Source: Escherichia coli
GTDB lineage: Bacteria > Pseudomonadota > Gammaproteobacteria > Enterobacterales > Enterobacteriaceae
Direction: 5' to 3' (one strand)
DNA length: 64,000 bases
NCBI RefSeq assembly: GCF_030384885.1
Contig: NZ_CP128613.1
Shown here: positions 33,363-38,650 of the stretch, piece after piece
How the letters are laid out: every line of letters starts with the position of its first letter
How positions within the stretch are numbered: the first letter of the stretch is position 1
Made by a program: the position numbers and the translations under genes
The notes under the pieces: generated by a model
The model's database searches: none
The model's input: only the letters and a program-made list of their open reading frames with translations
What the model was told of the DNA's origin: nothing

Positions 33363-33620
33363 AAAGGGTATCAGTGGGTTATTATTGATGCGAAAATTAA
33401 TATAAATATATTCTGAATTATTGGTGATGTCCGATAATACACTTGATTTTTTACTGTTTTAATAATATTTAAATAATAAATTTATATTTAATTTCGCATA
33501 ATTAATATTATTTTTAGATAAATCTACCCCATTGGTGTACTATGCCTCTGAATCATAAATACACTTATTAATTTAAGTGATGATTTAGACTGAAGGATAT
33601 ATTATATCAATGGAGTTCGT

Positions 33621-34193
33621 ATGAAACGTAATATTATTGGTGGTGCACTTACGCTGGCATCTTTAATGTTAGCCGGAAATGCACTTGCAGAAGATGGCGT
33701 TGTTCACTTTGTCGGTGAAATTGTCGATAGCACATGTGAAGTGACTTCCGATACCGCCGATCAAACTGTTCCTCTTGGAAAAGTCAGTAAAAGCGCATTT
33801 GTCGCTGTAGGAAGCGTGGCATCACCACAGGAATTCAGTATTAAACTGGAAAATTGCCCGGCAACTTATACTCAGGCTGCTGTTCGTTTCGATGGTACTG
33901 AAGATCCTGCCGGAAACGGCGATCTGAAGGTGGGAACGCCGATGACTTCAGGCAACCCGGGTGATTACACTGGCACAGGGGCCGCCATTGCTGCGACGGG
34001 TGTAGCTATTCGTATCTTTAACCGAGAGGATAACTCCCAGGTTAAACTTTATAATGATTCTACTTATACCCCTATCGCTGCTGACGGCACCGCTGAAATG
34101 AAGTTTATTGCACGCTATGTTGCAACCAGTGCGACCGTAACGGCGGGTACAGCAAACGCAGATTCACAATTCACCGTCGAATATAAGAAATAA
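33621..34193 (+). CDS. lpfA: major fimbrial subunit (type-1-pilin family), lpf2-like
   Basis: 190 aa, signal peptide ending NALA, conserved Cys pair, C-terminal donor-strand motif; island lies between glmS and pstS, the position described for lpf2. Confidence 0.8.
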   Translation: MKRNIIGGALTLASLMLAGNALAEDGVVHFVGEIVDSTCEVTSDTADQTVPLGKVSKSAFVAVGSVASPQEFSIKLENCPATYTQAAVRFDGTEDPAGNGDLKVGTPMTSGNPGDYTGTGAAIAATGVAIRIFNREDNSQVKLYNDSTYTPIAADGTAEMKFIARYVATSATVTAGTANADSQFTVEYKK

Positions 34194-34240
34194 TTAATTC
34201 AGAGCCTTTTTATTCAGTTGGCTTTGGCCAGGGAGTCGTT

Positions 34241-34972
34241 ATGTCCAGAAAAAGTTGTTTAATCAGGCTCTTTAAAGCAATAATTTCGCATAACTTATTA
34301 TATATCATGCTACTAAGCGCCTTTTTATTCCGGCCAGCATTAACCTATGCTGGTGTTGTTATTGGTGGTACACGAGTCGTTTATGCGAGCAATAATGCAG
34401 ATAAATCTATTTCTGTATTTAGTAAGGAAGAAAAAATTCCTTATCTCATCCAGGCATGGGTGGACCCATTTAATAAAGATGATAAAACTAAAGCGCCATT
34501 TATTGTTATTCCTCCGGTATCACGGTTAGAACCCGCACAAGAAAAAATATTACGTATCGTCCACACCAAAGGTTTGTCATTACCAGAGGATCGTGAGTCT
34601 GTCTTCTGGCTAAATATCAAAAATATTCCGCCCTCTGCGAGAAACAAAGAAGCGAACTCGCTGGAGATCGCCGTTAAAACGCGAATTAAGCTGTTCTGGA
34701 GACCGGCATCTATCCGCATGATTCCCGAAAATGCCGCACCAAAGGTGAAGTGGCATCGGGAAGGCCGAAATCTTATTGCTGAGAACCCTAACCCGATTCA
34801 TATCAGCGTGATGGATGTCATTGTAGATGGCCATGATGTGCCTCTTAACATGATCCGACCTTTCGAGACGCTCACATTACCGTTGCCTGCTAATTCTTCG
34901 GGTAGCCAAATGACCTGGCGATTTATTAATGACTACGGCGCGATAAGCGAGCCAATAAAGCAAGCGTTGTAA
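34241..34972 (+). CDS. lpfB: periplasmic fimbrial chaperone (PapD-like)
   Basis: 243 aa as in track; true start may be the internal M at ~34307; chaperone-usher context. Confidence 0.8.
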   Translation: MSRKSCLIRLFKAIISHNLLYIMLLSAFLFRPALTYAGVVIGGTRVVYASNNADKSISVFSKEEKIPYLIQAWVDPFNKDDKTKAPFIVIPPVSRLEPAQEKILRIVHTKGLSLPEDRESVFWLNIKNIPPSARNKEANSLEIAVKTRIKLFWRPASIRMIPENAAPKVKWHREGRNLIAENPNPIHISVMDVIVDGHDVPLNMIRPFETLTLPLPANSSGSQMTWRFINDYGAISEPIKQAL

Positions 34973-34996
34973 GCATTGCATAAGGATAGGCGAATT

Positions 34997-37516: not shown

Positions 37517-37525
37517 AGGTTTTTT

Positions 37526-38599
37526 ATGAAAAATAATATTCTGGTGTGGTGTTTTTCTATTGTTGCCATTTTTTACACGAGTACGACGCTTGCGGCTCCT
37601 AAAGGTATCTGTACTCCTGATAATGGCGTTTTTCATAGTACACTGGATTTTACAGGGACCGTTATCAGCGCAGGTCAGAATAAAGCGGGGACCATATTTA
37701 ATAAAATAGTCACTAATGGTCAGTCTTATCCGGGACGCTGTTACTGTGATACAGGAACGGTCGGTGAGTTTCCCTACATTTACTATACAGCAAGAATGAA
37801 TGAAGCCTTAAGTTATGCTGGGGCTCATTCTAATTTAAATTACTATAATCTTAACCCTCATCTTGATACCGGCATAGCAATCGATCTTTTGGGTGTGGGG
37901 TTTGTTAATGCACCATTCGAGTATCATGCTAATAATCCCGGTGGGAACACAAAGTATAATTGCGGTCGAAAGGAGGCATTAAACATTTCCAGTGGCGCTA
38001 AGGCTCAGATTTATTTTTATATCAAAAAGCCATTTGCAGGAAAGTTAATGATTCCCGAAATACTTATCGCAAAGTTGTATGGAACGATCAGTCGTGATAC
38101 ACCGGTTGATTATTCTAAACCGATGGCTGAGGTTTATATTCGTGGAGACATTACTGCACCACAAAGTTGTGAAATCAATAGTTTACAGCCTATTAATTTT
38201 GATTTTAGTACTATTCCAGCCTCAGATTTTTCATCTGTTGTCGGGAGTGCTGTGTCAGCGAGTAAGATCACCAGAACTGTCACCATTGAGTGTGTAAATT
38301 TGGGAATACTGAATAAGGATGAGATCACGACCTCTTTTTACGCTACTGAATCCAGTAGCGACAATTCAATGGTTGTAACATCAAACCCGAATGTAGGGAT
38401 AAAAATCTACGATAAAAATAACAGGGAAATCAACGTGAACGGTGGCGAATTGTCAACTGATATGGGAGCAACAAGCGTTTATGGTGATAAAGCTGGCAGC
38501 GTGACTTTTTCTGCTGCTCCTGCGAGCCTCACTGGTGCACGACCCGCGCCTGGAACATTTACTGCTACGGCAACAATCACACTCGAAATTGTTCGCTAA
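37526..38599 (+). CDS. lpfD: fimbrial minor subunit / putative tip adhesin
   Basis: 357 aa with signal peptide (TSTTLAAP), two-domain size typical of tip adhesins, last gene of operon. Confidence 0.7.
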   Translation: MKNNILVWCFSIVAIFYTSTTLAAPKGICTPDNGVFHSTLDFTGTVISAGQNKAGTIFNKIVTNGQSYPGRCYCDTGTVGEFPYIYYTARMNEALSYAGAHSNLNYYNLNPHLDTGIAIDLLGVGFVNAPFEYHANNPGGNTKYNCGRKEALNISSGAKAQIYFYIKKPFAGKLMIPEILIAKLYGTISRDTPVDYSKPMAEVYIRGDITAPQSCEINSLQPINFDFSTIPASDFSSVVGSAVSASKITRTVTIECVNLGILNKDEITTSFYATESSSDNSMVVTSNPNVGIKIYDKNNREINVNGGELSTDMGATSVYGDKAGSVTFSAAPASLTGARPAPGTFTATATITLEIVR

Positions 38600-38605
38600 T
38601 CAAAC

Positions 38606-38650
38606 TGACAACGGTGCTCCTCGCACCGTTGTCATCAGACACCTCTTTCT
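38606..38650 (+). terminator. putative terminator after the fimbrial operon
   Basis: Perfect 12 bp stem TGACAACGGTGC / GCACCGTTGTCA with TCCTC loop; downstream only moderately T-rich. Confidence 0.5.

Follow-up and report, generated by a model that had tools for sequence, protein, structure and literature searches.

An lpfABCD fimbrial operon of the LpfO113/Stg family at the glmS-pstS site of an Escherichia cryptic clade I strain

In strain 042 and O157:H7, the interval that separates pstS from glmS holds a long polar fimbrial operon (PMC2990770), and related but distinct fimbrial loci share this site. In the 64,000-nucleotide stretch of DNA analysed here (the window), the same interval was originally predicted to carry an lpf2-like chaperone-usher operon, which raises the question of which branch of these fimbriae it encodes and whether the operon is intact. 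The reading favoured by the data, with a probability of about 0.92, is that of an intact lpfABCD operon of the LpfO113/E. coli Stg family, located at its usual glmS-pstS site in an Escherichia cryptic clade I strain. Operons of this type, their site and their general involvement in adhesion are already established, and the exact sequence is already present in RefSeq; for instance, the gene of O113:H21 has been classed as lpfA2-1, and lpfA2 of the O113 type aids the adherence of O104:H4 to polarised Caco-2 cells (PMC4636846).

Genomic Location and Gene Organization

The island begins right after the stop codon of glmS, where homology to K-12 is lost (position 33315), and the block inserted relative to K-12 corresponds to 33316-38741 (Table 1), while the limits first proposed for the operon (33363-38650) run from just past the glmS terminator to just past the hairpin at 38606-38634. 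The predicted placement between the glmS terminator (33331-33356) and the Pho boxes of pstS was borne out, the Pho-box match at 38741-38758 being the sole one across the 64-kb window. The glmS terminator itself is of an island type, unlike that of K-12, and is kept in all aligned lpf/stg-bearing loci. The intergenic DNA between glmS and pstS of K-12 was also considered as a scar left by deletion of the operon and was rejected, as the two are alike only next to glmS and on the side of the Pho boxes.

Table 1. Features of the fimbrial locus and its flanks (positions in the window).
Feature	Position	Strand	Details
glmS	31485-33314	+	left housekeeping flank
glmS intrinsic terminator	33331-33364	+	hairpin 33331-33356, 11-bp stem, then T-run
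AT-rich region upstream of lpfA, candidate regulatory	33357-33620	+	GC ~26%
33-nt imperfect inverted repeat	33380-33507	.	arms 33380-33412 and 33475-33507, 62-nt spacer
Candidate sigma-70 promoter (putative)	33515-33543	+	TAGATA-17 nt-TACTAT
lpfA-type major pilin, 190 aa	33621-34193	+	Pfam Fimbrial 1.3e-24; PRK15289
lpfB-type periplasmic chaperone, 243 aa	34241-34972	+	PapD_N 8.1e-39, PapD_C 2e-10; PRK15290
lpfC-type outer-membrane usher, 839 aa	34997-37516	+	PapC_N 1.6e-41, Usher 9.2e-186, PapC_C 6.1e-17
G7 homopolymer within usher gene	36960-36966	+	G6 in sibling RefSeq genome
lpfD-type two-domain tip adhesin, 357 aa	37526-38599	+	Pfam Fimbrial 1.1e-23, residues 204-354 only
Perfect 12-bp hairpin	38606-38634	+	7 nt 3' of lpfD stop; no following T-run on + strand
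pstS Pho boxes	38741-38780	+	right island boundary; K-12 homology back from 38742
pstS	38847-39887	+	right flank

The list of open reading frames together with Pfam matches far beyond chance confirmed four co-directional genes for a major subunit, a chaperone, an usher and a tip adhesin. The features that define a chaperone-usher operon, namely a PapD-like chaperone, a PapC/FimD-like usher and a Fimbrial-domain pilin encoded on one strand, were all found, with E-values of 1e-24 to 1e-186. The genes are separated by 47, 24 and 9 nt, each of them is preceded by a Shine-Dalgarno sequence, and the operon is uninterrupted, with all four reading frames at full length. There is neither an lpfE gene nor a second adhesin gene, and strain RM10466 has an identical layout; the ABCD order directly downstream of glmS is found in Salmonella enterica and E. 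ruysiae as well. The hairpin that follows lpfD is probably the 3' end or a stabiliser of the operon transcript. An Rfam scan of the region 28-44 kb gave no match inside the operon, and only STnc410 was detected, near glmU.

Pilin, Chaperone and Usher

The product of lpfA scores 366 bits against NCBIfam model PRK15289 (cut-off 203) and contains a signal peptide, a donor-strand segment at its N-terminus and the cysteine pair Cys39/Cys79; structures of FimA match it at 1e-18 to 1e-13. The chaperone reaches 491 bits against PRK15290, for which the cut-off is 317. Its translation contains the motifs GGTRVVY and RIKLFWRP, with the arginine of the former at mature position 8 if signal cleavage follows TYA; we take these motifs to be the equivalents of R8 and K112 of PapD, which anchor the subunit C-terminus. 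In the case of the usher, no NCBIfam cut-off was reached among the models scanned. The reading frame could also be opened at an in-frame TTG (34976), giving a protein of 846 aa, but the ATG at 34997 is the better-supported start, having an AAGGA Shine-Dalgarno sequence and agreeing with the start in RefSeq.

In RefSeq, the name LpfB-O113 is given to the identical chaperone and LpfC-O113 to the identical usher. The identical pilin falls outside the naming rule for LpfA-O113 and is labelled only as a chaperone-usher fimbrial major subunit, whereas the LpfA of clade I genome L007, which is 90% identical to that of O113, does receive the LpfA-O113 name. At the protein level the four products share 86.8, 86.4, 91.7 and 76.8% amino acid identity with LpfA, LpfB, LpfC and LpfD of O113, the closest among the named families.

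Tip Adhesin

The Pfam Fimbrial match of LpfD is confined to the C-terminal part of the protein, which fits an N-terminal receptor-binding domain (predicted at residues ~24-203) followed by a pilin domain (204-357). The best NCBIfam model is StgD, with a score (230) that stays below its cut-off (493), and the label of the identical RefSeq protein is only "fimbrial protein", as the LpfD-O113 naming rule does not apply to it. PDB entry 5AFO, LpfD of strain LF82, matches the adhesin over residues 40-355 with an E-value of 7.5e-26. The AF2 model of the protein (pLDDT 89.1) was aligned by Foldseek to 5AFO with a TM-score of 0.71-0.73 over 340 columns; this was the best structural match, followed by FimH, PapG, CfaE and CupB6, which are full-length tip adhesins.

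It had been proposed that the adhesin gene is the most AT-rich of the four and encodes the variable, receptor-determining component. The gene does have the lowest GC content (0.411), although by a narrow margin, as the other three have 0.425, 0.471 and 0.490 (48.4% for the whole window). It is also the most divergent gene across alleles, with 73-84% identity in the N-terminal domain vs 82-93% in the pilin domain. Both the AT-richness and the divergence support the proposed role.

Integrity of the Operon and the Usher G-Tract

The alternative that survives best, unlikely as it is, holds that the operon is cryptic or decaying, i.e. silenced, switched off through the G-tract of the usher gene or degenerating into a pseudogene, and that the lineage makes no fimbriae as a result. 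It draws on the sibling RefSeq genome of clade I strain 2013C-4282, which has six G residues instead of seven and an usher annotated as frameshifted, and on other strains in which the locus is often inactivated by insertions of IS2, IS5 or IS1 or, in O157, by a split lpfB. The very AT-rich upstream region is typical of H-NS-silenced genes, and in laboratory culture E. coli keeps most of its chaperone-usher operons silent. However, all four frames are intact in the window, and the exact 839-aa usher, which 173 blocks in the public collection contain, is the common form of the protein. The run of seven G residues is also found in L007 and L008, both clade I genomes, and in L012. Across 17.5 kb the sibling strain and the window are separated by no more than 5 SNPs, and the shorter run of the former could be a homopolymer sequencing error. 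Finally, the dN/dS of the operon genes against the O113 type is 0.05-0.15, which demonstrates long-term purifying selection. Since the "frameshifted" usher of 2013C-4282 comes down to a single G-run difference, caution is advisable before that strain is called Lpf-negative.

Upstream Region

A long AT-rich region had been noted upstream of the operon, and it was found to cover 306 bp (33315-33620) with a GC content of 26.5%, compared to 48.4% for the window. The clade I genomes L007 and L008 match its part between 33357 and 33620 at 100% identity, and the identity of this part to the O113 type is 77-86%. A scan with the sigma-70 consensus returned 9 sites where 12.3 were expected, i.e. no enrichment, and the promoter listed in Table 1 lies below the scan threshold; because the scan was uninformative, this candidate was chosen from the phylogenetically invariant GTAnTAT at 33537-33543, which is unchanged across 8/8 upstream regions compared. 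Bile salts, iron and Fur have been named in the regulation of lpf2 of O157 (PMC4288034). A Fur box was sought upstream of lpfA and rejected, the best site having 13/19 matches to the 19-bp consensus, a value equalled by 213 of 500 shuffles. Control of this operon by H-NS would be an idea carried over from lpf1.

The inverted repeat at 33380-33507 scores 18, against 9.1±1.2 (maximum 14) in 300 shuffles, has an RNA fold z of -2.5 and is restricted to clade I alleles. Its arm is unique within the 64-kb window, and hence was discarded as a dispersed repeat. A fimS-like invertible switch was considered as well, and we do not claim one: the repeat is significant, but it occurs in clade I alleles only and the operon is without a recombinase gene. 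It seems rather improbable that Lpf/Stg fimbriae are here under undescribed, lineage-specific controls, with the G7 tract of the usher gene acting as a slipped-strand switch and the inverted repeat as an invertible segment or as the target of a regulator. Were this so, these two elements and a cassette-like swapping of lpfA cores between Escherichia clade I and Pseudocitrobacter would turn the locus from a static adhesin operon into a programmed module for antigenic and phase variation.

Allelic Diversity and Recombination

A homologous operon is present at the glmS-pstS site in 1,962 of 5,426 complete E. coli genomes. The haplotype of the window, in contrast, occurs in 1/5,426 of them, and about 100 draft assemblies have it; its exact proteins recur on ~100-170 public contigs, and among the best matches listed 18 genomes carry an operon match of at least 93% identity. 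The core of lpfA (approximately 33650-34150) is the variable part of that gene, and its allele was likewise seen in one of the 5,426 complete genomes, the best other one reaching 86.1%. Compared with the nearest clade I genome this core is only 75-80% identical in nucleotide sequence (dS 0.76), whereas dS does not exceed 0.075 in all other genes compared. Against an O113-type strain, dS is 0.79-1.7 in the operon and 0.16-0.24 in glmS and pstS.

The segment from lpfA to lpfC is 97-99.5% identical to the locus of Pseudocitrobacter vendiensis, while glmS and pstS of that species are only 80-88% identical; the corresponding dS values are 0.06-0.07 for lpfA and lpfC and 0.75-0.77 for the flanks. 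Near-identical fimbrial genes within divergent flanks point to a recent intergeneric transfer, and the haplotype is a mosaic. The locus acts as a hot spot of recombination: the conserved flanks allow homologous exchange, through which lineages and even genera trade anciently diverged alleles, both of the lpfA core and of the receptor-binding domain of the adhesin. It offers a clean example of deep allelic lineages that are swapped by recombination at one chromosomal site, also across genera.

These differences may be of practical importance, as STEC and ETEC are reported to emerge from Escherichia clade I (PMC10100065). The lpfA-O113 reverse primer of Doughty matches lpfA of the window at 18/18 positions, and the forward primer at 17/19, with one mismatch at the base adjoining the 3' end. 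PCR and allele typing based on O113 and O157 sequences may overlook the lpfA allele of clade I or assign it wrongly.

Proposed Mechanism of Fimbrial Assembly

We infer the adhesive function and the regulation of the operon by analogy, and the assembly mechanism from the chaperone-usher pathway. Transcription probably starts some 80 nt ahead of lpfA, in the AT-rich stretch, and would extend to the hairpin after lpfD. All four proteins would be exported by Sec, after which LpfB would complement the subunits, whose Ig folds are each incomplete. The two-domain adhesin LpfD is expected to be recruited first by the usher LpfC and, since it is without a donor strand of its own, to be placed at the tip of the fibre. 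The usher would then polymerise LpfA via donor-strand exchange, giving rise to a surface fibre that mediates adhesion.

Comparison with Known Fimbrial Systems

Lpf2 of EHEC O157:H7 (OI-154, lpfA2-2) occupies the same insertion site and belongs to the same broad fimbrial family, and both loci keep the glmS terminator, a -10-like box and the Shine-Dalgarno sequence. It is, however, very improbable that the operon of the window is of this type. In O157 there are six annotated ORFs, including a split chaperone (lpfB) and two adhesin paralogues (lpfD and lpfD'), preceded by an upstream region of ~700 bp, and the amino acid identity amounts to 62% for LpfA, 64% for LpfC and only 41-44% for the adhesin. 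Megablast fails to detect the O157 locus. At the allele level the O157 assignment is refuted, as primers specific for OI-154/lpfA2-2 mismatch lpfA at 5-8 positions, and the lpfA2-2 allele is excluded by 8 mismatches per lpfA2-2 primer. The designation lpf2-like stands with regard to site and family, within the four-gene LpfO113/Stg branch, but does not extend to Lpf2 of O157:H7.

Orthology with the original Salmonella lpfABCDE or E. coli Lpf1 (OI-141), or with type 1 fimbriae, is scarcely credible: the models of LpfA-D and FimA/C/D/H give weak, family-level matches and the nearest solved adhesin structure is LpfD of AIEC LF82, yet the Lpf scores are all far below their cut-offs (LpfA 91/221, LpfB 141/360, LpfC 741/1271, LpfD 138/412), a fifth, lpfE-like gene is absent, and Lpf1 occupies a different chromosomal site. 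LpfD of LF82 (5AFO; Lpf1/Salmonella-type Lpf) has the two-domain tip-adhesin fold in common with LpfD of the window at only 26% identity, and the operon that encodes it, at another locus, has five or six genes. Type 1 fimbriae (FimA/C/D/H) share the assembly pathway and the subunit folds, but all Fim cut-offs are missed and the operon is without FimF/FimG/FimI-like adaptor genes and fimB/fimE switch genes.

The remaining comparisons bear on the LpfO113/Stg assignment itself. The stgABCD genes of Salmonella follow glmS directly in the same order, and the series PRK15289-15291 is the best-fitting one in NCBIfam; the identities are 69, 61, 69 and 40%, and in Salmonella a neighbour other than pstS lies downstream. 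The lpfABCD operon of the window represents the "lpf2" locus in its four-gene form and is an orthologue of Salmonella stgABCD. Its place in the LpfO113/Stg branch rather than with the OI-154 Lpf2 is supported, probably on the lpfA2-1 side of that locus. LpfO113 of LEE-negative STEC O113:H21, which is equivalent to E. coli Stg, shares with it the site, the four genes and their order, and the lengths of the products are almost the same (190, 243, 840 and 357 aa in LpfO113; 190, 243, 839 and 357 aa here). The nucleotide identity between the two operons is ~83% overall, the lpfA core of the window representing a distinct allele and the 33-nt inverted repeat upstream being an addition specific to clade I.

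Organization of the operon

The original prediction placed a cluster of pilin, chaperone, usher and adhesin genes between glmS and pstS, and both the open reading frames and their Pfam domains agree with this arrangement. The upstream region (33315-33620), described as long and AT-rich, has a GC content of 26.5%; the cluster lies between the glmS terminator and the Pho box of pstS, the latter being the sole match to this motif in the 64-kb window; and the adhesin gene is the most AT-rich of the four (GC 0.411 vs 0.425, 0.471 and 0.490). Since every detail of the earlier observation (ORFs, domains, signals and GC content) was seen, it is regarded as confirmed. 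The intergenic gaps are 47, 24 and 9 nt long, each containing a Shine-Dalgarno sequence. The usher ORF opens with TTG; the most likely start, however, is the ATG at 34997 (product of 839 aa), which is preceded by an AAGGA ribosome-binding site and is also the usher start taken by RefSeq.

Features of the fimbrial locus, in window coordinates
Feature	Position	Strand	Description
glmS	31485-33314		left flank
glmS terminator	33331-33356		hairpin, then T-run
lpfA, major pilin	33621-34193	+	190 aa; Fimbrial 1.3e-24
lpfB, chaperone	34241-34972	+	243 aa; PapD_N 8.1e-39, PapD_C 2e-10
lpfC, usher (ORF from TTG)	34976-37516	+	846 aa; PapC_N 1.6e-41, Usher 9.2e-186, PapC_C 6.1e-17
lpfD, adhesin	37526-38599	+	357 aa; Fimbrial 1.1e-23, residues 204-354 only
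Hairpin 3' of lpfD	38606-38634		perfect, 12 bp
Pho-box match	38741-38758
pstS	38847-39887		right flank

The glmS terminator of K-12 (19794-19830 of its locus, L006) is wholly different from that of lpf/stg-bearing genomes (33315-33364 in the window), the hairpin of the latter being conserved from Salmonella to O157. The boundary of the island, i.e. the lpf block absent from K-12, is the glmS stop codon itself, and hence the Tn7 insertion sequence differs between the two states.

Elsewhere in the window, a Bax inhibitor-1/YccA-family gene (28979-29677) is located between atpC and glmU, a position where it is found in Salmonella enterica and clade I genomes, but not in K-12. Between this gene and glmU, Rfam detects the enterobacterial sRNA STnc410 (29712-29869, minus strand; 186.6 bits, gathering score 50). 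Beyond phoU (43414-48641), the window lacks an equivalent of the K-12 bgl operon region; two features are annotated here in the sibling RefSeq record, a pseudogenised type III effector and a pentapeptide-repeat protein. K-12 homology restarts only at 48642 (93%).

Upstream region

In eight aligned upstream regions, from Salmonella to O157, a GTAnTAT motif (33537-33543) and a GGAG Shine-Dalgarno sequence are invariant; together with TAGATA 17 nt upstream, the former is a plausible candidate promoter of lpfA. A generic promoter scan gave no enrichment of sites, and no Fur box stands out upstream. Known controls are H-NS and Ler in the case of lpf1, and bile salts, iron and Fur in that of O157 lpf2 (PMC4288034). 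An imperfect 33-nt inverted repeat (33380-33412/33475-33507; 85% complementary, 62-nt spacer) precedes lpfA. Its score of 18 (vs 9.1±1.2) was reached in 0 of 300 shuffles, and the repeat is unique within the window and confined to upstream regions of the clade I type.

The usher and its G tract

The usher ORF is intact in the window, and the operon is uninterrupted. The sole difference between the island and that of strain 2013C-4282 in RefSeq is a run of seven G residues (36960-36966) vs six, and because of the latter the usher of that record is annotated as "frameshifted". The G6 tract is explained by an assembly error in the homopolymer or, alternatively, by a genuine off-mutation. G7 is also present in two clade I genomes (L007, L008) and in locus L012; the tract is broken (GGGGTGG) in locus L009 and in Pseudocitrobacter vendiensis, and reads AGAGGGGGA in the O113 type. 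The pure tract is limited to some clade I alleles, others having it broken or lacking it. Operons at the glmS-pstS locus of other E. coli are often inactivated by IS2, IS5 or IS1, in the usher or elsewhere (genomes H2, H59, H75 and H90-92), and the O157 chaperone gene is split (L004 3519-4147).

The adhesin and proposed fimbrial assembly

The adhesin had been proposed as the variable component, and it is indeed the most divergent protein across alleles, above all in its N-terminal domain (73-84% identity vs 82-93% for the pilin domain). A homologue search among Escherichia adhesins gave a ladder of alleles at 92, 84, 79, 77, 73-76, 68 and 51% identity. The only PDB entry matched at the sequence level was 5AFO, LpfD of AIEC LF82 (E 7.5e-26, residues 40-355), which was also the top structural match (TM-score 0.71-0.73, 26% identity) of an AlphaFold2 model (30 aligned sequences as input; mean pLDDT 89.1). 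The next matches, CfaE, CupB6, PapG, FimH and CsuE, are all two-domain tip adhesins, and the predicted fold supports the assignment of the lpfD product as a tip adhesin.

While gene content, intactness, purifying selection, fold and synteny are established, assembly may be outlined by analogy with the chaperone-usher paradigm. All four proteins would be exported by Sec; LpfB, in which R8- and K112-type motifs are present, would provide donor-strand complementation; LpfD would initiate at the usher; LpfA, with a visible N-terminal segment VHFVGEIV, would be polymerised via donor-strand exchange; and the N-terminal domain of LpfD would mediate adhesion.

Host background and allelic exchange

Strain 2013C-4282 is listed as stx1-positive, and its complete genome is counted among those of Escherichia cryptic clade I (PMC10100065). 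Over 17.5 kb, 5 SNPs and 1 indel separate the window from this record, and the window therefore derives from a sibling strain. Identity to K-12 is 98.2% in kup-atpC and only 95.7-96.3% in glmU-glmS and the pst genes; the closest glmU-glmS sequences are found in the very 18 genomes with which the window has the island in common. The exact proteins are already in databases and are not new: there are 102 public contigs with LpfA, 102 with LpfB and 161 with LpfD, the intact usher is present in 173 collection blocks, and one metagenome contig is 100% identical across the aligned glmU-pstS region.

When identity to 2017-02-2CC, the closest of the other clade I genomes, was computed in sliding segments, it was 99-100% except in the lpfA core (∼33650-34150), where it fell to 75-80% at the nucleotide level (dS 0.76 vs at most 0.075 in every other gene compared). 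This looks like the replacement, in the manner of a cassette, of one allele of the gene for the fimbrial shaft by another. The core allele was found at ≥99% in one of 5,426 complete genomes (runner-up 86.1%), and is 97-98.5% identical to the P. vendiensis locus. Over the stretch of that locus (L011 6001-9896, ERR3255970) matching window 33580-37480, lpfA-lpfC were 97-99.5% identical, with a range of 90-99.5% for lpfB and lpfC; the neighbouring glmU, glmS and pstS reached 80-88%, and dS was 0.06-0.07 in lpfA and lpfC vs 0.75-0.77 in the flanks. Near-identical lpfA-lpfC genes within divergent flanks indicate that this ∼3.9-kb block was recently exchanged across genera, at one and the same site of the chromosome. 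The P. vendiensis arrangement was seen in two independent assemblies.

Relative to the O113 type, the operon has a dS of 0.79-1.7, as against 0.16-0.24 in the flanks, a 4- to 10-fold difference, yet dN/dS is 0.05-0.15 in every gene. Judging from these substitution rates, the operon alleles are old, functional lineages rather than products of decay.

Relationship to known long polar fimbriae

The lpf operon has been sited between pstS and glmS (PMC2990770). A megablast search of 5,426 complete E. coli genomes (query 33315-38846) showed that 1,962 carry a homologous operon at the glmS-pstS site: one at 100% (NZ_CP027579.1, 2013C-4282), 17 at 93-98%, a few at 85%, and the bulk, annotated as lpfA/B/C/D-O113, at 82-83%. 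RefSeq names the identical proteins LpfB-O113 and LpfC-O113, the major subunit and adhesin bearing generic names. Two proteins passed their NCBIfam cut-offs, namely the major subunit, which scored 366 with PRK15289 (cut-off 203), and the chaperone, which scored 491 with PRK15290 (cut-off 317); the top model of the adhesin was StgD (230 vs a cut-off of 493), and none of the Salmonella Lpf and Fim cut-offs was reached, all by wide margins. When primers from PMC4343011 and PMC3417533 were placed in silico, the O157-specific ones (Toma OI-154, Torres lpfA2-2) had 5-8 mismatches, and the Doughty lpfA-O113 pair had 2 in the forward primer (one next to the 3' base) and 0 in the reverse, in agreement with the LpfO113-type assignment from identities and NCBIfam.

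Amino acid identity (%) of the window proteins to related operons
Operon	LpfA	LpfB	LpfC	LpfD
LpfABCD-O113	86.8	86.4	91.7	76.8
O157:H7 OI-154 (chaperone split)	62		64	41-44
Salmonella enterica	69	61	69	40
E. ruysiae	75	68	68	51

With LpfABCD-O113 as the closest of the named families, the designation "lpf2-like" holds for the locus and can be sharpened: by its sequence, the operon is assigned to the LpfO113/Stg branch, whose O113:H21 gene is lpfA2-1 (PMC4636846), and not to OI-154 of O157:H7, the assignment being at the level of a branch. It is an operon of a known, already annotated kind; the clade I haplotype carrying it is rare and bears clear signs of past recombination. The O157:H7 locus differs in that its annotation comprises six ORFs, the chaperone being split and the adhesin present as two paralogues. 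The Salmonella and E. ruysiae operons each lie immediately 3' of glmS.
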